Source: a virus (Duplodnaviria > Heunggongvirae > Uroviricota > Caudoviricetes). From it: a stretch of DNA of 22,503 nt. Made by a program: the position numbers and the translations under genes. Below the pieces are notes generated by a model that ran no database searches, was not told where the DNA came from, and was given only the letters and a program-made list of their open reading frames with translations. Of this stretch, positions 1,521 to 22,503 are shown in pieces (position 1 is the stretch's first letter; each line of letters begins with the position of its first letter). The stretch is from IMG/VR virus record IMGVR_UViG_2698536485_000016, positions 1 through 22,503 of that record; one strand, given 5' to 3'.

Positions 1521-1980
1521 TCAACGTAAGGCGTTCCTCGATATGCTGGCGTGGTCAGAGGGAACTGATAACGGACGGCAGAAAACCAGAAATCATGGTT
1601 ATGACGTCATTGTTGGCGGAGAGCTATTCACTGATTACTCAGATCACCCTCGCAAACTTGTCACGCTAAACCAAAAACTCAAATCAACAGCCGCCGGACG
1701 TTACCAGCTTCTTTCCCGTTGGTGGGATGCCTACCGTAAGCAGCTTGGCCTGAAAGACTTCTCTCCGAAAAGCCAGGACGCTGTGGCATTGCAGCAGATT
1801 AAAGAGCGTGGCGCTTTACCGATGATTGATCGCGGTGATATTCGTCAGGCTATCGACCGTTGCAGCAATATCTGGGCTTCACTGCCTGGCGCTGGTTATG
1901 GTCAGTTCGAGCATAAGGCTGACAGCCTGATTGCAAAATTCAAAGAAGCTGGCGGAACGGTCAGAGAGATTGAGGTATGA
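1504..1980 (+). CDS. R: Endolysin, lambda R type (lytic transglycosylase)
   Basis: 158-aa ORF directly after the holin, overlapping its 3' end by 17 nt; translation matches my recollection of lambda R ([24 protein letters not shown]...). Confidence 0.95.
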
Positions 1981-2444
1981 GCAGAGTAACCGCGATTATC
2001 TCCGCTCTGGTTATCTGCATCATCGTTTGCCTGTCGTGGGCGGTCAATCATTACCGTGATAACGCCATGACCTACAAAGAACAGCGCGATAAAAAAGTCA
2101 GTGAGCTGATGCAGGCTACTACCACCATTACTGACATGCAGCAGCGCCAGCGTACTGCTGATGCACTTGATGCTAAATACACGAAGGAGTTAGCTGATGC
2201 GAAAGCTGAAAATGATGCTCTTCGGCGCAAGCTTGATAATGGTGGTCGGGTGCTCGTCAAAGGAAAATGCCCTGTGCCATCCTCAGCCGAAACCTCCAGC
2301 GCCTCCGGCATGGGCAATGATGCCACCGTCGAACTCTCTCCAGTTGCTGGACGAAACGTTCTCGGTGTCCGGGACGGAATTATCCGCGACCAAACAGTAC
2401 TGAGAACGCTTCAGGAATACATCAGGACGCAATGCCTTCGATGA
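1977..2444 (+). CDS. Rz: Rz inner-membrane spanin (i-spanin)
   Basis: Start overlaps the R stop (ATGA); N-terminal transmembrane segment followed by a coiled-coil-like periplasmic domain; position after the endolysin. Confidence 0.9.
2197..2403 (+). CDS. Rz1: Rz1 outer-membrane lipoprotein spanin (o-spanin), nested in the +1 frame of Rz
   Basis: 68-aa ORF wholly inside Rz; signal peptide with lipobox (LIMVVGC) followed by a proline-rich mature region ([11 protein letters not shown]); classical embedded Rz/Rz1 architecture. Confidence 0.75.
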
Positions 2445-2615
2445 TAGCGATAATTTTACTCATCATCCTTCACATCTGGCTCTGTAGACAGGGTGATGAT
2501 CACTTCTGGAGTGAATCCAGATTAAACATCTCATTGCTGATGCTTGATATTGAGCATCTGGCGCGCGGTAAGGGGCTGCGTTGAGATAAGAGCCAGTCAT
2601 TACAAATACCAGGAT

Positions 2616-2645
2616 TTAGCCTCGCATTCGCGGGGCTTTTTATAT
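2616..2645 (+). terminator. Candidate intrinsic terminator downstream of the lysis cassette
   Basis: GC-rich hairpin agcctcgc-attc-gcggggct (2618-2637) followed by TTTTTATAT. Confidence 0.5.
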
Positions 2646-2785
2646 CTGAATTTCACAGCGCATCTCACGCGCATATTAACGAGAGCCTTTCAGTAAGCGA
2701 GCCTGAGAAATTCCGTTATAGGTGGCGACCTCTCTCGGGCGGCTTTTCTGTGAGACAGGCTCACTTTCTAAAAGGTAAAGACGCT

Positions 2786-3304
2786 ATGAATCATCAATTG
2801 GCTAATCTCGATTTCCGGGACATGGTGGTTGTTTCTGGTGATCGCGTGATCACAACCTCCCGCAAGGTAGCAGCTTACTTCGACAAGCAGCATCACCACA
2901 TCATTCAGAAAATCGAAAAGCTAGACTGTTCGGATGAATTTCTAACCAGCAACTTTTCGCGGGTTACCTATGAACACAAGGGTAATCAGTATGTTGAATA
3001 TGAAATTTCCAAAGACGGCGCGATGTACATCATCATGTCGTTTACCGGCAAAAAAGCTGCCGCCATCAAAGAGGCGTTTATCAAAGCATTTAATTGGATG
3101 CGTGACAGGCTGATGGAGATGGCTCACTCATACCAAAGAGAGCACAACGAGTTAATGCTGGAGTTCATGAAGGAAAAGGATGTTGCCAGTATGTCAGGAC
3201 GCTTGCTGAACCGCTGGGGCAGGATCAAAAAACCGCAACTCATAGCAAGAATCGAAAGGCTTGAGCAGCAGGCGCAAATATCGATCCCCGGACTGCCAAA
3301 GTGA
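2786..3304 (+). CDS. Rha-family phage regulatory protein
   Basis: N-terminal segment VVVSGDRVITTSRKVAAYFDKQHHHIIQKIEKL and later MSFTGKKAAAIKEAFIKAFNWM fit the Rha domain pattern as I know it. ATG at 2786 preferred over the GTG at 2750 used by the ORF track. Confidence 0.75.
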   Translation: MNHQLANLDFRDMVVVSGDRVITTSRKVAAYFDKQHHHIIQKIEKLDCSDEFLTSNFSRVTYEHKGNQYVEYEISKDGAMYIIMSFTGKKAAAIKEAFIKAFNWMRDRLMEMAHSYQREHNELMLEFMKEKDVASMSGRLLNRWGRIKKPQLIARIERLEQQAQISIPGLPK

Positions 3305-3656
3305 CCATTCCAAAGCTCATCTACGGGTGGGCTTGATAATGAAACCGTGATTTACATCCCCACAATCCGGGTATGTAAAAGATAGTTCAGGCGAGAACAG
3401 ATTTAACTAAATCTGTGCACCACCAGTTGCGGCAGTACAGCGAAACAACCCAAGCCAGAAAGTGGGGAAATAACACTGGCAGCCACTGAAAGATGAACCT
3501 CCAGCCTTAAGGCAAAAAAGATTCTTTGTGGTGGCGGACTGATGGAAAGACATCGGTTATTGCAGAGGCCATTCAATGAGTGGTCTCGACAATGGCTTAT
3601 ACCCTACACGGGATAACTTAATTGATATCCCTTTTAACGGATAAACGGAGCCAACA

Positions 3657-3899
3657 ATGGCAGAGATTATTCCCATGACTGAAGAACAGAAATTCCAGTT
3701 AGAGATTTACAAACTGGTCATGAACCAGAACGCAGCCGCAGAAGAAGCATTTCAATTCATCGGCACTGACGAGTTGAAGCTTGAGCTATTCAAAATTCAC
3801 TTCCAGTCAGGTGGCGCTAATTCAGATATCACGACCAGAACTATCGAAGCGGTGCGTAAATCGAAGGAAGCGTTAGACCTGTTCACTACCGGAGCATAA
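3657..3899 (+). CDS. Hypothetical small acidic protein (80 aa)
   Basis: ORF with SD GGAG 9 nt upstream (acggagccaacaATG); no family recognised; sits just upstream of the small terminase gene. Confidence 0.5.
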   Translation: MAEIIPMTEEQKFQLEIYKLVMNQNAAAEEAFQFIGTDELKLELFKIHFQSGGANSDITTRTIEAVRKSKEALDLFTTGA

Positions 3900-3978
3900 A
3901 CATGGCAACTCAAGGTTTCGACAACCCATCCAAATTCCGCGATGAATGGGATAAGCAAGCAGAAGGGAAATAATCAAT

Positions 3979-4404
3979 ATGGCGACTGAGAAAAAGAATG
4001 TCGGTCGCCCTTCGGATTACCTACCGGAGGTGGCTGATGATATCTGTGCGCTGCTTTCCTCCGGGGAAAGTCTGGTTAAGGTTTGCAAGCGCCCCGGCAT
4101 GCCAGCAAAGGCTACTGTATTTCGCTGGCTGTCAGAGCATGAAGAATTTAGAGACAAGTACGCGAAGGCAACTGAGGCACGAGCTGATTCTATTTTCGAA
4201 GAGATATTCGAAATTGCTGACACTGCGATTCCAGATGCTGCTGAGGTGGCAAAGGCAAGACTTCGCGTTGATACCCGCAAATGGGCGCTGGCCCGAATGA
4301 ATCCCCGTAAGTATGGCGACAAGGTAACTAACGAGCTTGTCGGCAAAGACGGCGGCGCAATCCAGATTGAAACATCACCGATGAGCACTCTATTCGGAAA
4401 ATGA
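3979..4404 (+). CDS. Terminase small subunit (Sf6 gp1-like)
   Basis: 141-aa ORF immediately upstream of, and overlapping (ATGA), the large terminase; N-terminal DNA-binding-like region; matches my recollection of Sf6-type small terminase. Confidence 0.85.
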   Translation: MATEKKNVGRPSDYLPEVADDICALLSSGESLVKVCKRPGMPAKATVFRWLSEHEEFRDKYAKATEARADSIFEEIFEIADTAIPDAAEVAKARLRVDTRKWALARMNPRKYGDKVTNELVGKDGGAIQIETSPMSTLFGK

Positions 4405-10123: not shown

Positions 10124-10127
10124 TAAC

Positions 10128-10155
10128 AAGGGGCTTACGCCCCTTTTATGTTTTA
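10128..10155 (+). terminator. Intrinsic terminator or attenuator after the coat gene
   Basis: Hairpin aaggggc-ttac-gcccctt (10128-10145) followed by TTATGTTTT. Confidence 0.6.
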
Positions 10156-10165
10156 AGGAAACAAT

Positions 10166-10351
10166 ATGGATCGCATGAGTGTATTCCTTGCCGCAGATAA
10201 CGAATCCGGGCATGTACAGGCCGTTATCGCAGAAAAAGACTTCCAGTTTTTCGAAAAGTTGGGCTTTGTTGCCTCAGTTGATGAATTGAAACCGACCAGT
10301 AAGCGAGGTCGTAAGGCGGCAGACAATGGCAACAGTACTGACAAAGGGTGA
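10166..10351 (+). CDS. Hypothetical small protein (61 aa)
   Basis: ORF with SD (aaggaaacaatATG) just after the coat terminator; its 3' end overlaps the start of the gp4-like gene by 26 nt; no recognised family. Confidence 0.4.
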   Translation: MDRMSVFLAADNESGHVQAVIAEKDFQFFEKLGFVASVDELKPTSKRGRKAADNGNSTDKG

Positions 10352-17388: not shown

Positions 17389-17477
17389 CTTCGCAAACAC
17401 CAGGAACGTGCAAAAACCAAATATGTAGAACGCAATATTCAGCATATCTCTGTGCATAAATCCTCCGTAACGGATGG

Positions 17478-17738
17478 TTATCTGCTGTCTTTTTTATATA
17501 GCTTCTTGAGCGTATCAAAGACAATTTTCTTAACCATATCAGATTGTTGTTCTGCCATACGCTCTGCATCGTCAATGTAAACTGATGCAGAGCTTTGTTT
17601 ATCCAATGATTCCTCAATCGCTGCAATTATCTCTGAGTTCAGCGACCTGTTATTCATCTTCGCACGCTGCTTAATTTTCGCGTGGAGTTCATGCGGAAGT
17701 CTCAAGTGAAACTGCGCCTCGTCGTATTTGCTGTACAT
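17478..17738 (-). CDS. mnt: Mnt-like repressor (ribbon-helix-helix, Arc/MetJ superfamily)
   Basis: Translation (FHLRLPHELHAKIKQRAKMNNRSLNSEII...DAERMAEQQSDMVKKIVFDTLKKLYKK) aligns along its length with P22 Mnt as I remember it. ATG at 17738 chosen (SD GGTGAGG upstream); an upstream ATG at 17771 is possible. Confidence 0.8.
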   Translation of the reverse strand: MYSKYDEAQFHLRLPHELHAKIKQRAKMNNRSLNSEIIAAIEESLDKQSSASVYIDDAERMAEQQSDMVKKIVFDTLKKLYKKDSR

Positions 17739-17869
17739 CCTTGATGCCTCACCAGTTGGGTGGAATGGCATCGTAACCTACTGGATAAATACTCAATAAT
17801 ACCATTTTGGTATGCAATCACATCATGGTTGCATCATATCATTCGTCTGGAGCAATGAAATGTCAGATA

Positions 17870-18370
17870 TCACCTACTCAACAGATGGTCAGCAACCATG
17901 TTTGCTGCCTTATAAGCTATAGCAGCTTCATCAATGGTGTTGAATCTCCCAAGGGTTATGTTTTTACCTGAGACATTTATCTGAGCTTGCCATTGATTTC
18001 TGGCTTGACAGAAAGTTACCCCCTTGATCCCAGCATTGCTATTTCGAGGTCCGACATTTAATGCATTTACGACTCTGCTGACATCCCTAAGGTTTGAGAT
18101 TGCGTTATTTCTTCTGTTTCTATCAATGTGGTCAATCTCTTGTTTGGGCCATTCGCCATATACATACAGCCAGGCAAGTCTATGTGCAAAATATCTTACG
18201 CCATCAATATTAATTGCGTTATATCCATAAGAAATTGTGCCAGCAACTTTCCCAACAGCACCTCTGGCGCTTAATTTCTTTTTCCAAGTGAAAATTCCTG
18301 TTTCTTTATTGTAATCGAGAACCTCCATAAGGCGCTCCCGAGTTACTACCTCGTGACGTCTCTTACTCAT
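17870..18370 (-). CDS. HNH endonuclease with C-terminal AP2-type DNA-binding domain (homing-endonuclease-like)
   Basis: HNH_3-like motif ([38 protein letters not shown]) followed by an AP2-like segment (GIKGVTF...WQAQI...[22 protein letters not shown]). ATG at 18370 with strong SD (GGAG, 6-nt spacer) chosen over the TTG start at 18412 in the ORF track. Confidence 0.85.
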
Positions 18371-18392
18371 TATTTTCTCCGGAATGTTTATT

Positions 18393-20060
18393 ATGCCAGA
18401 ACAATTATACAACGTTGTTGTTTCACAACCAAGTCAGTTATTTACTTTAGCTCGCTCGTTTAAAGCAAATGCCAATGGCAAAATTTATATCGGAAAAATT
18501 GACACTGATCCGGTAAATCCTGAAAACCAGATCCAGGTTTATGTGGAGAATGAAGACGGCTCTCACGTTCCTGTTTCGCAACCAATCATCATTAACGCTG
18601 CTGGTTACCCTGTATATAACGGACAGATTGCCAAGTTTGTAACCGTGCAAGGCCATTCTATGGCTGTTTATGATGCGTACGGCGCGCAGCAGTTTTATTT
18701 TCCGAATGTACTGAAGTACGACCCGGATCAGCTTGAGCAGCGTCTTGCATCATCAATAGGTTCTTCCATGGTTGGCATTACCGATGGAAGGACAGTGCAT
18801 GATTTTATATCTGTTGATGACTATCAGAGAATTGGTGATATCCGTGGTTACGGGGCGACAAATGAAAACGTAAACCCTGTCAACATTGCCGTTGCCACAG
18901 GTGAGGCCAATGGTCTACTGAAGGTGCCTAATGGAGTATGGAGCGGTAATTTTGAGTTAAAAAATAAAACTAGCATAACTGGTGAATCCATAACATCAAC
19001 AGTTGTTAACGTTCCTATAAACACGATCGGAATAAAGCCTGAGGGCTCTGACGTTAGAGGGATTACTATATCAAACATGAATCTCCAAGTTAACGGATCT
19101 GTTGCTGGCGGTCCTCCTGTTGGTAGCGGGGTCGGAATAGACATGTCTTTTTGCGGAAAGGCAGTTAACTGTGAGTTTAACAACCTTTATCTCGATTTCT
19201 TTGATATTGGTTACAACGCTGGATATGCTGATTTTTCAAATATTTATAACAATATGAGGTGCAATAACAACCGAATCGGGATTAACCTATCCAGTAACGG
19301 AACAATTATTCAAAACGTGTTCAATGGGTGTTATGTTGCAAACTGGACGGCTTATGCCGTGAAAGTTTCTGGCGCTAGCAACCAGATATTCAACGCGCTT
19401 AACATGGGGCATAACGGATCCGCCAATGCTTATTTCCTGCAGATAGATACGAACTCAAGAGGAATCATATTTAATCAACCTAACTTCGAAATGGACGTTG
19501 CAAACGGGAAAATTACAGCAGGAGGCCAGGCTATCGTGGTCGCCTCTAGTTCTGAGGTTACATTTAACTCCCCGACATTCAACAGGGTTAACGCTGCAGG
19601 GGCAAATGCCTACCTGTTCCGGGTTAGGGGTAACGCTGTAGTACGTATAAACGACCCTCAAATCTACAACGACGATGGCACAATAGGTCACCTAATTATC
19701 AGTGATGAAGCTGTTGTTTATCTCAATGATCCAAATCGAATATTCACAGTAATTACTATCCAAGGTAATGGGAGGCTAATACGTGTTGACGAGAAGATAT
19801 CAAACTCCCCTAACTATACAAACATTCTTACTTTAAAATCTGGAGACATAATTAACTTTGGATTCTATGCAAGATATGCAATGGCGGTTCCAGATTTTCA
19901 CTCCAATACTATGCCATCACCATTCAAGTACGCAGTGAACTTTGACACTTACCATAGCAGTGGAACTGCCATTGCTCGAGTGTATGATACAACTACAGGA
20001 AATGGAGTATCAAACATCAATGTTACATGTTTCGTACAGGCGTGGAGAGAGGATAGATAA
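18393..20060 (+). CDS. Tailspike protein: conserved P22-type head-binding N-domain plus divergent parallel beta-helix receptor-binding domain
   Basis: N-terminal ~115 aa ([53 protein letters not shown]...) match the P22/Sf6 tailspike particle-binding domain; the remainder is Asn/Gly/Val/Ile-rich repeats typical of a beta-helix. Start could be 18384 or 18393. Confidence 0.85.
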
Positions 20061-20090
20061 AAATAGGGCGGTCTCCCCGCCCTATTTTTA
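20061..20090. terminator. Bidirectional intrinsic terminator between the convergent tailspike and acyltransferase genes
   Basis: Perfect 9-bp stem atagggcgg / ccgccctat with a 5-nt loop, flanked by AAAA on the left and TTTTT on the right. Confidence 0.7.
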
Positions 20091-21155
20091 TACTGTAACT
20101 AAATTGTCTTCATTTCTATTGGTTTTTCTTTTTAATTTAAGAAAATGTATTTCAAAAAGATAGTATGACGCAGTTGATACTATATATGCGATAGCAAACC
20201 CACATGCTATTATCACAGCATTATTGTTTACTCCAAACAAGGAGGCCATTTTGTTTGCAATTGAAAAACACAGCAAATGCCACATATACAAACCATAACT
20301 TATCTTTCCTGTAAATGTTAATGGCTTTAATGATAATGCTTTTGTTATTATTTGTTTTTTCCCTAGCACACTCCACTTGTAAATGAAAAAAATTGCAGAT
20401 GAAAAAATCATCCCAAACGCTGTAAACATATACCAGCATTTCCCAGCCCAATCTACAGGGTTCCAAAAAGCATTAAGACCAACAGAATTTATTCCATTAA
20501 GAACCAGCCCAACACCTGCTATAAAAGTTAAAAATCCTGATTCATATGCGTACTTCTCATCTTTTATCTTTGAAAACAGAGCGCCAAGAACTAACATGTC
20601 AATGCAACTGATAAGAGTTACATTTACAATGTATGGGTTTCCATCAGTGATTTGAAATATAAAATATCTTGATATACTTGATGTTATTATTAGTATAATA
20701 AAAATCAGATTCATATTCTTTTTGTTTATGAAAAATATGAATAGAGGCCAAAGCCAGTAAAATTGTTCTTCCACTGCAAGAGACCAGGTGTGCCCCAAAA
20801 TTCCAGGTGTTGTAACATTTATTCCTATATAATAGTTTTGTAGATAAGTTATAAACCACAAATAACCATCCGTTGGTTTCCCAGTTGCAATTAGAAGAAT
20901 AAAGTTAACAAGTAGGTAAGCATAAAATAACGGGAATATTCTAAGCGATCTATTTATAAGAAATCGTTTAATATAGTTACTAAAACCAGAGTCTTTATCC
21001 TCGATAAGGATTGAGGTAATTAAGAAACCAGATAAGCAAAAGAACAGCGGAACTCCAGACCAACCAAGAGAAAATCCTGAAACTTTGGCATGAAAAAGCA
21101 TTACAATGAGCACCGCAATACCTCTCACACCATCTAAAGATTGTATATGTTTCAT
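20088..21155 (-). CDS. Integral-membrane acyltransferase family 3 protein (O-antigen acetylase-like, probable lysogenic conversion gene)
   Basis: 355-aa polytopic membrane protein; N-terminal motif LDGVRGIAVLIVMLFH and multiple hydrophobic segments typical of the family; AT-rich; located between tailspike and integrase as in serotype-converting phages. Confidence 0.85.
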   Translation of the reverse strand: MKHIQSLDGVRGIAVLIVMLFHAKVSGFSLGWSGVPLFFCLSGFLITSILIEDKDSGFSNYIKRFLINRSLRIFPLFYAYLLVNFILLIATGKPTDGYLWFITYLQNYYIGINVTTPGILGHTWSLAVEEQFYWLWPLFIFFINKKNMNLIFIILIITSSISRYFIFQITDGNPYIVNVTLISCIDMLVLGALFSKIKDEKYAYESGFLTFIAGVGLVLNGINSVGLNAFWNPVDWAGKCWYMFTAFGMIFSSAIFFIYKWSVLGKKQIITKALSLKPLTFTGKISYGLYMWHLLCFSIANKMASLFGVNNNAVIIACGFAIAYIVSTASYYLFEIHFLKLKRKTNRNEDNLVTV

Positions 21156-21345
21156 GCTAAAAATCCATATTCTACGGGAAGCGGGAGTCTATCAGATTTA
21201 GTTGATATTATCTATATAGACTAACTAGATGTTATCTAGCGATTGACTGTCATTCTATGTATATTTTCACGCCTGTTATCATATAACTTGATCATTTGGT
21301 ATTTTGAGAGATTAACTTCTTTTGTTTCCAGTGTGGCTATGCCAA

Positions 21346-22503
21346 TTACTCCACCTTTTCATCAAGCCAGTCCGCCCACCACTGCATCATTTCTCTGCGT
21401 TTATCGAGATACTGAGCATGGTTGTAAATTCCGCGCACAGATCCGCCGTTGGCATGTGCAAGTTGCACTTCAATAGCGTCAGCAGGCCATTCGTGCTCGT
21501 TCATAATCGTGCTGAATTCATGCCTGAATCCGTGACCGCTTTCCAGACCCTCATAGCCGATTTGTTTAATCACAAGCAATACCGCGTTCTCGCAGATTGG
21601 CTTCTTCTTATCGTTGCGCCCGGCAAAAACAAACTCTGATACTGGTTTAGTGATGGAGCTTAGCGTAGTGAGAAGTTCAACCACCTGGTCTGACATAGGA
21701 ACAACATGAATCTTGCGTCCCTTCATCACATTGGCGTCGATGGTGATAATCCTGTTTTCAAAATCGACGTTCTTCCATAGCATGGAACGAAGCTCTTTTG
21801 TTCTGAGGGCTGTGTAGCGTAAAACTTTGGTCGCAATGAGCGATACGATACTTCCTGAAAATGTTGCCAGTGCTTTGTTAAATGCCGGGATCTGGTCTGC
21901 AGGAAGAAACGGGAAGTTCTTCTTGCGGTATCCTTTCATGGCGTCTGCAAGGTCAGGTGCCGGGTTATATTTAGCCCTTCCGGTGACAATAGCGTAACGG
22001 AAAACCTCGCCGCATCTTCTGCGGGCTTTGTTGGCTCGCTCCATTGCACCGCGATCTTCAAATCTGCGGATTACTTCCAGCAGTTGCATCGGCTCAATAT
22101 CCTGAATTTCAAGGCCGCCGATGATAGGTAAAATGTCGTCATCAAACATTTTTGCAAGTTCATTTGCATAGCCTACTGACCAGACTTGCTTCTTGTGCTC
22201 GTACCATTCCTTGTAAATCGCACTAAAGGAATTGTTGTTAGACGAAGCCTTTTTCGCTTTTACCGGATCGATGCCAACCGAGATGTCTTTCCTCGCAGTC
22301 CATGCTTTATCCCTTGCCTCCTGCAAAGTCATAAGCGGGTATTTTCCGACGGTCAGGATTTTCTCCTTACCGTCAATCTTGTAGCGAAGCTGCCATACCT
22401 TTTTCCCGGATACAGGGACATAAAGGTACAGGCCATTACCATCGAGTAGGCGGTATGGTTTTTCTTTCGGCTTAGCTGCTTCAATCTGCTTAACGGTGAG
22501 CAT
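21346..22503 (-). CDS. int: Tyrosine integrase, P4-like (N-terminal DUF4102-type arm-binding domain)
   Basis: N-terminus MLTVKQIEAAKPKEKPYRLLDGNGLYLYV typical of the family; C-terminal catalytic motifs HGFRHEF and RGIYNHAQY. The start codon occupies 22501-22503, so the upstream region is outside the window. Confidence 0.9.
   Translation of the reverse strand: MLTVKQIEAAKPKEKPYRLLDGNGLYLYVPVSGKKVWQLRYKIDGKEKILTVGKYPLMTLQEARDKAWTARKDISVGIDPVKAKKASSNNNSFSAIYKEWYEHKKQVWSVGYANELAKMFDDDILPIIGGLEIQDIEPMQLLEVIRRFEDRGAMERANKARRRCGEVFRYAIVTGRAKYNPAPDLADAMKGYRKKNFPFLPADQIPAFNKALATFSGSIVSLIATKVLRYTALRTKELRSMLWKNVDFENRIITIDANVMKGRKIHVVPMSDQVVELLTTLSSITKPVSEFVFAGRNDKKKPICENAVLLVIKQIGYEGLESGHGFRHEFSTIMNEHEWPADAIEVQLAHANGGSVRGIYNHAQYLDKRREMMQWWADWLDEKVE

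Follow-up and report, generated by a model that had tools for sequence, protein, structure and literature searches.

A lambdoid late-operon slot with interchangeable Rha cargo and probable noncoding RNA modules in a P22/HK620-like phage

Why does a Rha-family gene sit between two long noncoding gaps in a late operon whose genes otherwise nearly touch? The question is raised by a 22,503-nucleotide (nt) stretch of tailed-phage DNA (IMG/VR record IMGVR_UViG_2698536485_000016, positions 1 to 22,503; this whole stretch is referred to as the window), in which the gene lies on the late (+) strand between the lysis gene Rz and an orf80/DUF2560 gene. A preliminary description of the window viewed the gene as a moron and suggested that the gaps might hold promoters, a small RNA, or protein-binding sites. 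Its account of the layout was borne out. The family assignment agrees with the coordinates and with a Phage_pRha match (Pfam PF09669; residues 23 to 106; 84.1 bits against a cutoff of 29.9). Rz ends at 2444, and the next + strand open reading frame (ORF) of at least 60 amino acids (aa) is at 2750/2786-3304. The gap from Rz to the Rha ATG (2786), described as about 340 bp with a hairpin terminator, measures 341 bp and contains a canonical terminator (T1) at 2618-2645. The downstream gap (3305-3656) is 352 bp, and its longest ORF has 57 aa and lies on the minus strand, in line with the statement that no ORF of 60 aa or more occurs there. The remaining late-operon junctions range from -17 to +13 nt, the exceptions being 202 nt after the coat gene and 668 nt between Q and S, the usual seat of the late promoter and tR'. 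Because nearly all other junctions are so tight, the two gaps flanking Rha stand out, as had been claimed.

Positions 2441-3656 (+ strand) are an accessory-gene slot of lambdoid phages, located between the lysis cassette and the packaging genes, and Rha is one among many interchangeable cargos of this late-operon slot. In other phages, differing cargo is flanked by the same modules, and the junctions fall at the start codon on one side and at the base of a hairpin on the other. A 5' module (T1, a small hairpin, and a structured leader) and a set of 3' elements (hairpins A and B, a block named D2, and a terminator-like hairpin, T2) are conserved as sense-strand, RNA-level modules. Taken as a whole, we consider it probable that the locus is a slot with swappable Rha cargo whose gaps are conserved noncoding RNA modules.

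The limits of the cassette are given by an empty site in the IMG/VR contig L010, in which the counterparts of window positions 2453-2606 and 3306-3554 are contiguous and share the 9-mer CATTACAAA. Because L010 joins 2606 to 3306, the ~700 bp at 2607-3305 represent an insertion flanked by CATTACAAA (the left cassette junction, 2598-2606) and its repeat CATTCCAAA (3306-3314). Gene 65 directly adjoins hairpin A in this empty site. A second insertion point lies between the 3' end of D2 (...GACATC, 3554) and hairpin B; it is empty in the window and occupied in 23 of the 80 compared loci, for example, by the gene-66 family.

Rha is found at the same place in P22, where rha (orf201) lies between gene 15/Rz and orf80, and between Rz and the small terminase in Pantoea phage PA-1 and Escherichia coli phage IdasGreatGrand. 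The layout was already known, since P22 carries rha at this position; the location given in the preliminary description is correct, but it is not special to this genome. Other cargos include a KilA-N gene plus hkbL in HK620, gene 66 in Sf6, and, in further relatives, GIY-YIG or HNH nucleases, an insertion sequence element, and genes annotated as anti-CRISPR. The slots of IMG/VR contigs hold other Rha classes, KilA-N, T5orf172/MUG113, the P22_AR_N antirepressor domain, a Tad2-like anti-Thoeris domain, and the Phage_gp49_66 family. The Tad2-like protein of contig L019 (IMGVR_UViG_3300045988_013848) is encoded between T1 and hairpin A, directly after T1 and without the structured leader, and the slot of phage Huey holds two genes annotated as anti-CRISPR; on account of these finds, the slot also gathers antidefense genes.

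The part of the upstream gap next to the cargo forms a structured 5' leader of about 108 nt with four helices (2681-2788, +), which ends at the Rha ATG. Its base is a 20-nt inverted repeat (2686-2705/2756-2775) closing a long irregular hairpin. A covariance model built from six leaders (R2) scored the window leader at 110.2 bits and that of P22 at 109.8 bits, and it detected exactly one copy in 66 of 99 sources, representing at least five sequence classes. Across 34 distinct sequences, 94.8% of the cells were paired and compensatory changes occurred at 21 of 33 pairs; these counts were taken from an alignment fitted to the model, which inflates them, but the margin is large, given that no shuffle reached the leader values and that slid 3' partners yielded 34 to 51% paired cells and at most 4 compensatory pairs. 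An independent RNAalifold analysis of six hand-collected leaders recovered 11 compensatory pairs. The leader had no match in Rfam.

In other phages, the leader precedes Rha, KilA-N, T5orf172, or P22_AR_N genes. It ends at the ATG of genes whose Rha products are only 42 to 49% identical (Stx2a phage, Pantoea phage PA-1, Klebsiella klb_E, and IdasGreatGrand). Virtually the window type of T1 plus leader, up to ATGAA, is present in HK620 (before KilA-N), L037 (before a different Rha), and L084 (before T5orf172); leaders of the P22 type stand before a KilA-N gene in L042 and before another Rha gene in L018. The sole good Shine-Dalgarno sequence in the window leader, AAAGG at 2771-2775, is the 3' strand of the closing helix, and its occlusion is likely here.

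RNA evidence for this element comes from P22, whose leader copy (39537-39646) contains the 89-nt small noncoding RNA (sncRNA) P22F, ending 5 to 6 nt before the rha ATG. P22F and a second sncRNA, P22G, were identified by small-RNA sequencing of P22-infected Salmonella (Naaz et al. 2026, PMC13397905), at levels in infected cells comparable to those of oop and sar (PMC13397905). A BLAST search of P22F against the window gave no match. Because BLAST finds no similarity, the relation of P22F to the window leader is positional and structural, and a covariance model is needed to see it: the window leader shares the structure and position of the P22F copy, including its end at the start codon, at nearly the same R2 score. 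The earlier suggestion that the gaps hold functional noncoding elements, small RNAs among them, gains support here, as the P22 counterparts of the gap elements are the reported P22F and P22G.

The + strand of the downstream gap folds at z = -4.0 (0 of 100 shuffles) and the minus strand at z = -2.0. Hairpin A (3307-3341, +; 56.9 bits with the hairpin model, R1) directly follows the Rha stop and has a 9-bp upper stem; its 4-bp lower stem is broken in the window by a C at 3310. Its paralogue, hairpin B (3559-3594, +; 55.1 bits), consists of a 4-bp lower stem, a 2x2 CA/GA internal loop, and a 10-bp upper stem; compensatory changes at 4 pairs set it apart from hairpin A. A third hairpin class was found after Sf6 gene 66. 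Common to the three classes are a lower stem of 4 bp (ATTR/YAAT), the 2x2 CA/GA loop, an upper stem of 9 to 10 bp, and a loop of 3 to 6 nt. Differences between classes are compensatory at 5 of 13 pairs, and 96 to 98% of the cells are paired, compared with 32 to 50% when partners are slid. Pair 14/25 is U.G in most copies, a pattern in keeping with sense-strand RNA rather than with a DNA palindrome or the antisense strand. According to R1, the hairpin is confined to the slot, with one to three copies per locus, always on the late strand (one in P22 and two in the window), and the motif has no copy outside the slot in P22 or the window. A copy follows the cargo in every locus examined (rha, hkbL, Sf6 gene 66, and both Huey genes), and at least 10 unrelated upstream sequences join hairpin A within 1 nt of CATTACAAAG. 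The Sf6 boundary sequence "bsq7" bears no relation to the hairpins.

Such a regular position behind the cargo might also be expected of single-strand recombination sites resembling integron attC, into which cargo would be inserted site specifically. An imperfect palindrome does follow each cassette ORF in the loci examined, its outer boxes (ATTRCA/GAYAAT) are conserved around the 2x2 mismatch, differing sequences join it at almost the same nucleotide, and a 9-nt repeat flanks the Rha cassette. We nevertheless find this explanation extremely doubtful. The U.G pairs favor an RNA role, the 5' junctions fall at start codons, as in ordinary lambdoid mosaicism, and the long conserved flanks provide ample homology for general recombination; moreover, no recombinase is annotated in the slot-flanking regions examined, the rest of the window not having been searched for one.

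How the cargo is transcribed would depend on T1 (2618-2645, +), in which a hairpin (2618-2637) is followed by a T-run; its 8-bp stem (6 GC pairs), 4-nt loop, and TTTTTATAT tail are those of an intrinsic terminator. A T1 homologue and its spacer lie ahead of P22 rha, and T1 stands ahead of the cassettes in HK620, L019, L037, L042, L084, and L018; by sequence comparison, it is missing from the L010 empty site. The simplest interpretation of this distribution is that T1 moves together with the cargo, which would then be transcribed by Q-antiterminated polymerase only and hence late in lytic growth. Between T1 and the leader, the fold includes a small GC hairpin, GCGC-N7-GCGC (2658-2672, +), judged by eye; the matching place holds GCGC-N6-GCGC in P22 and ATGCGT-N6-ACGCAT plus a T-run in L042 (also by eye). 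Positions 2658-2679 can alternatively be read as a direct repeat, GCGCA(T/C), with a spacing of about one helical turn, which is kept in P22 though the surrounding bases differ; the repeat would be either the small hairpin or a protein site.

A true moron would be organized differently: the 140 nt separating T1 from the ATG would hold a promoter for Rha, the gene would be expressed in the prophage, and hairpin A or T2 would be its terminator. Promoter and terminator prediction, which the preliminary description had proposed, returned T1 on the one hand and, in a consensus scan of 1900-4100, no sigma-70-like promoter on the + strand on the other; the gaps thus failed to yield the promoters that had been envisaged. 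One candidate was found by hand, TTCACA (2652-2657) and TATTAA (2674-2679) with a 16-nt spacer, which would start transcription at ~2686, the foot of the leader. It was rejected as weak: it lacks the -7 T, and it is not conserved in P22, where the -10 counterpart is CAACAA and a 7-nt insertion is present. Some circumstances do suit a moron. A match to CobraSix spans 2658-3344, the extent of such a promoter-gene-terminator unit, and the neighboring P22 pid moron relies on a very weak, eroded promoter (PMC8835761). At the other end of the gene, hairpin A follows the Rha stop without a U-tract, and T2, which has a TTTT tail and a weak stem, lies 300 nt further on; P22 rha, in addition, has been described as a late-operon gene (PMC4936722). 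We therefore regard a true moron as unlikely. What remains of the earlier moron proposal is the insertion, since L010 joins 2606 to 3306 and so places the cassette between genes that are adjacent in relatives; the independent promoter does not. Because a terminator and not a promoter precedes the gene, the strict sense of moron (promoter-gene-terminator) is not supported for Rha, which looks like a late-operon cassette read by antiterminated polymerase.

Among protein-binding sites, the other content proposed for the gaps, those of integration host factor (IHF) were checked, since direct regulation of Rha by IHF would lead one to expect a site close to it. The consensus WATCAANNNNTTR has zero matches in the window, and the only two sites with one mismatch are both inside the Rha ORF, with none in either gap.

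The downstream gap also contains D2 (3427-3556, +), a near-invariant 130-nt noncoding block homologous to P22G. Window positions 3430-3572 match nt 60 to 204 of P22G with 95.9% identity over 145 nt (E value, 6e-64); P22G is 204 nt long, and its first 59 nt are the 3' end of P22 rha, which is different in the window. D2 occurs in 205 phage records, including the siphoviruses HK97 and HK022 and the mEp phages, before quite different packaging genes, and in 1,118 of 5,426 complete E. coli genomes (21%), where it is never annotated. Only about six sites are commonly polymorphic across 80 IMG/VR copies, and its boundaries remain sharp, with at least 10 contexts on the upstream side and at least 5 on the downstream side. 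Candidate genes in this region were rejected: the 28-aa + strand ORF of D2 has a stop in the window, frameshifts in four loci, and nonsynonymous changes only; the 57-aa minus-strand ORF is frameshifted in P22; and "orf118" of ST64T and ST160 is a DUF2560/orf80 homologue (residues 43 to 114) with a spurious N-terminal extension. In ST160, deletion of the T2 region lets the annotated N terminus of Orf118 (L007, 1648-2004) extend across D2 and hairpin B, and the start was probably miscalled.

The invariance and spread of D2, including its presence in about one-fifth of complete E. coli genomes, invite a further explanation, namely, that both the leader, as a P22F-like RNA, and D2, as a P22G-like one, act in trans as small RNAs (sRNAs) on phage or host mRNAs, similar to IsrK. 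This explanation is compatible with the slot model, and we rate it as rather unlikely. Its precedent is Gifsy-1 IsrK, a short RNA that activates translation of a longer, inactive mRNA of an antirepressor operon (PMC4825925), and P22F and P22G are as abundant in infected cells as oop and sar (PMC13397905). The 5' half of D2 additionally shares loop blocks with the Rfam sRNA motif Proteo-phage-1 (RF03044): CNCCAG, AAGCCnGnnAGUG, and GAAAnAACACnGGCAGCC occur in the same order at 3421-3484, although the stems of the model are not formed and the score of 18.7 bits, against a gathering threshold of 42, falls short of membership. There is no Rfam match to IsrK, no promoter was found for the leader or D2, the reported 3' end of P22G lies inside hairpin B rather than at a terminator, and predicted duplexes of D2 with window transcripts were no better than those of shuffled controls.

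Returning to the slot with conserved RNA modules, several observations weigh against it, in addition to the inflation of the leader covariation counts noted above. D2 is too invariant for covariation, and its predicted fold is unsupported. P22-type leaders have an AAGG just outside the closing helix, and Shine-Dalgarno pairing is not universal; for this reason, occlusion would not be a general property of the leader. The hairpins have no U-tract, which is why we take them as RNA 3'-end, processing, or stability elements and not as terminators. A single small-RNA sequencing study underlies the P22 small RNAs, which could be products of late-mRNA decay. A weak or nonconsensus promoter could escape a consensus scan of the kind used; the P22 pid promoter, which is very weak and has an eroded -10 box (PMC8835761), is an example of one that might. 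Finally, conservation at this locus can reflect recent exchange and not function. Upstream of gp74 (HNH), HK97 and HK022 retain D2, hairpin B, and T2 together with about 80 nt from the start of orf80, and the orf80 piece in HK97 (L006, ~1730-1810) is a dead 5' fragment beside D2, left by recombination.

ST160 likewise has a dead 3' hkbL fragment beside slot elements, and because HK97 and ST160 retain such dead gene fragments, conservation alone is weak functional evidence. If the gaps as a whole were functionless debris, that is, decayed genes and recombination scars kept by recent, frequent lambdoid exchange, fragments adjoining the slot elements would be expected, as would the identity of D2 (93 to 98%), which is similar to that of neighboring coding DNA. 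Debris would not explain the compensatory substitutions across sequence classes (21 pairs in the leader and 5 in the hairpins), a leader that is still recognizable where Rha identity is down to 42 to 49%, or the sharp boundaries of D2 in so many contexts, and we consider it very unlikely. The case for function rests on the covariation of the leader and hairpins and on the P22 RNA data.

These elements suggest the following mechanism. With a terminator ahead of the gene and no detectable promoter, Rha would probably be made only from the Q-antiterminated late transcript, by read-through of T1. The folded leader probably tunes translation, the stability of the mRNA (5' end), or both, and in the window variant, it would do so while pairing with the Shine-Dalgarno sequence. 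Leader control would suit cargo such as Rha, since misregulated Rha is harmful: the Rha proteins of phi80 and P22 harm phage growth in IHF-deficient hosts (cited in PMC4936722). The hairpins would probably serve as sense-strand RNA 3'-end, processing, or stability elements that define stable mRNA ends, and the leader and D2 would persist as stable structured remnants, that is, as P22F-like and P22G-like small RNAs. As the modules are conserved while the cargo varies, they may also act as homology arms for cargo exchange, which would explain the frequent exchange at these points; similar reasoning has been put forward for the PeSL motifs of T4-type phages (PMC2839356, PMC4122927). A bolder version can be imagined, in which the slot is a gene-cassette system with an RNA grammar of its own: a leader riboregulator gating antirepressor-type proteins (Rha, KilA-N, T5orf172, and P22_AR_N), boundary hairpins that are possibly recombination sites, and a trans-acting D2/P22G sRNA in about one-fifth of E. 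coli genomes. We think this version distinctly unlikely; among its points (leader, hairpin, and D2), the leader riboregulator has the best support.

The Rha gene itself (2786-3304, +) encodes 172 aa from the ATG (184 aa from the GTG at 2750). Besides Phage_pRha, it has a C-terminal ORF11CD3 domain (residues 115 to 168) and matches PHROG 518, "Rha-like transcriptional regulator" (E value, 5.5e-80); the protein is 100% identical to Rha of phage Gally and 45% identical to P22 Rha, and it had no meaningful match among PDB sequences. Judging by homology, the true start is the ATG at 2786 and not the GTG at 2750: the ATG is the start used in phage APC_JM3.2, and the homology to P22 Rha also begins there. 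In P22 (NC_002371, L005), the RefSeq start of rha, GTG 39575 (201 aa), falls within the structured leader, and homology and the end of the leader point to an ATG at ~39644; GTG 2750 in the window is placed likewise.

Part of the upstream gap is occupied by a putative 47-aa ORF with an N-terminal hydrophobic helix (2441-2584, +), similar to Sf6 gene 65, so that the noncoding DNA before rha is only 201 nt. Its ATG overlaps the Rz stop (ATGA); it matches PHROG 11822 (E value, 1.3e-34) and is annotated in APC_JM3.2, Sf6 (gene 65), and Huey. The downstream gap has a facultative insert of 80 nt (3346-3425), which 20 of 80 related loci possess. It contains a hairpin (3351-3379, from the fold) and a perfect 8+8 palindrome, ACAGATTTAACTAAATCTGT (3397-3416), where a protein might bind or a small hairpin might form. 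Immediately ahead of the ribosome-binding site of orf80 lies T2 (3610-3635, +), a weak hairpin resembling a terminator (GGGATA...TATCCC plus TTTT), which was missed by the terminator scan because its loop exceeds 8 nt and is known from the fold; phage Ayreon carries a "terminator" annotation at the matching site, which is also conserved in Sf6 and Stx phages. The downstream gap has no homology to the P22 pid locus, which sits between hairpin B and orf80 in P22.

Over window positions 2300-3980, identity to Escherichia phage APC_JM3.2 is 98%, and HK620 is also close. Both phages belong to the genus Lederbergvirus (P22-like), and from this similarity, we classify the window as a P22/HK620-like phage. 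Upstream of the slot are Q (4-528), holin S (1197-1520), endolysin R (1504-1980), and Rz (1977-2444, with Rz1 embedded inside). On its right are orf80/DUF2560 (3657-3899, +; Pfam DUF2560; E value, 1e-43) and an Sf6-type small terminase (3979-4404), followed by the large terminase and portal. A search of the window for tRNA and tmRNA genes found none, and an Rfam search at the gathering threshold gave no match; ST160 (L007) has two tRNA genes just upstream of its holin gene, at 1-126 (Rfam tRNA, 42 and 32 bits). The 202 nt that follow the coat-protein gene are window positions 10124-10325, and P22 annotates a stem-loop and orf69 at the matching place. At 17389-22503, the chain of + strand ORFs shows gaps of 995, 322, 666, and 546 nt, probably because of minus-strand genes past the tail genes.

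It was already known that Rha occurs at this position, that the slot is mosaic, and that P22F and P22G exist, and the gene and its position are ordinary for P22-like phages; the added value lies in the flanks, and the advances are modest. New, it appears, are the leader as a covariation-supported RNA family common to Rha, KilA-N, T5orf172, and AR_N genes, a dedicated hairpin family at cassette boundaries, and the very wide distribution of the never-annotated D2. The locus shows where and how accessory and antidefense genes (Rha, KilA-N, Tad2-like, the gene-66 family, and nucleases) are swapped in lambdoid late operons. It supplies two covariation-supported structured RNA motifs that are not in Rfam, along with a third, near-invariant element unannotated in more than 1,100 complete E. 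coli genomes. With it, the P22F and P22G RNAs of the 2026 report can be viewed against a structural and comparative background, and there is a testable approach to the old question of how rha expression stays harmless unless IHF is missing.

The nearest known system is the P22 locus Rz-rha (orf201)-orf25/pid-orf80 (NC_002371), which shares with the window the position, strand, and family of Rha (45% identity), the T1 homologue, the R2 leader, and the orf80 homologue; D2 comes directly after rha (40181-40368), followed by hairpin B. Unlike the window, P22 has neither the gene-65 ORF nor hairpin A, the stretch from hairpin B to orf80 contains the minus-strand pid moron (PMC8835761), and the P22 leader belongs to another sequence class, with the Shine-Dalgarno sequence outside the closing helix. 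P22F and P22G were detected only in P22, and the window elements are known from sequence; the study that reported these RNAs (PMC13397905) describes neither the covariation nor how the leader is used regardless of cargo, and it does not mention the hairpin family. Gifsy-1 IsrK/orf45-anrP (PMC4825925) is similar in that an RNA element lies directly upstream of an antirepressor-type gene, and in that system, a short and a long RNA species exist, the long one being under translational control (PMC4825925). IsrK, which has no sequence or Rfam similarity to the window, has its own promoter and ends at a partly read-through terminator, whereas here the terminator precedes the leader. The moron concept comes from the lambdoid phages HK97 and HK022. 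In common with lambdoid morons (usage as in PMC7067206), the Rha cassette is a late-region insert between genes that are adjacent in relatives and is accompanied by hairpin or terminator structures; it differs in that no promoter of its own was detected and that a terminator precedes it, so that its expression is probably late and dependent on read-through. The PeSL cassettes of T4-type phages (PMC2839356, PMC4122927) also have short conserved stem-loop motifs flanking variable ORFs and are apparently shuffled by homology. In a PeSL, an early promoter is joined to a stem-loop; each genome has many PeSLs, which lie in a hyperplastic region, with the same promoter-bearing motif on both sides of an ORF. 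In the slot described here, by contrast, the 5' and 3' motifs differ and no promoter was found: a terminator and leader stand on the 5' side and a promoterless hairpin on the 3' side, in a single slot with one to three copies of the hairpin.

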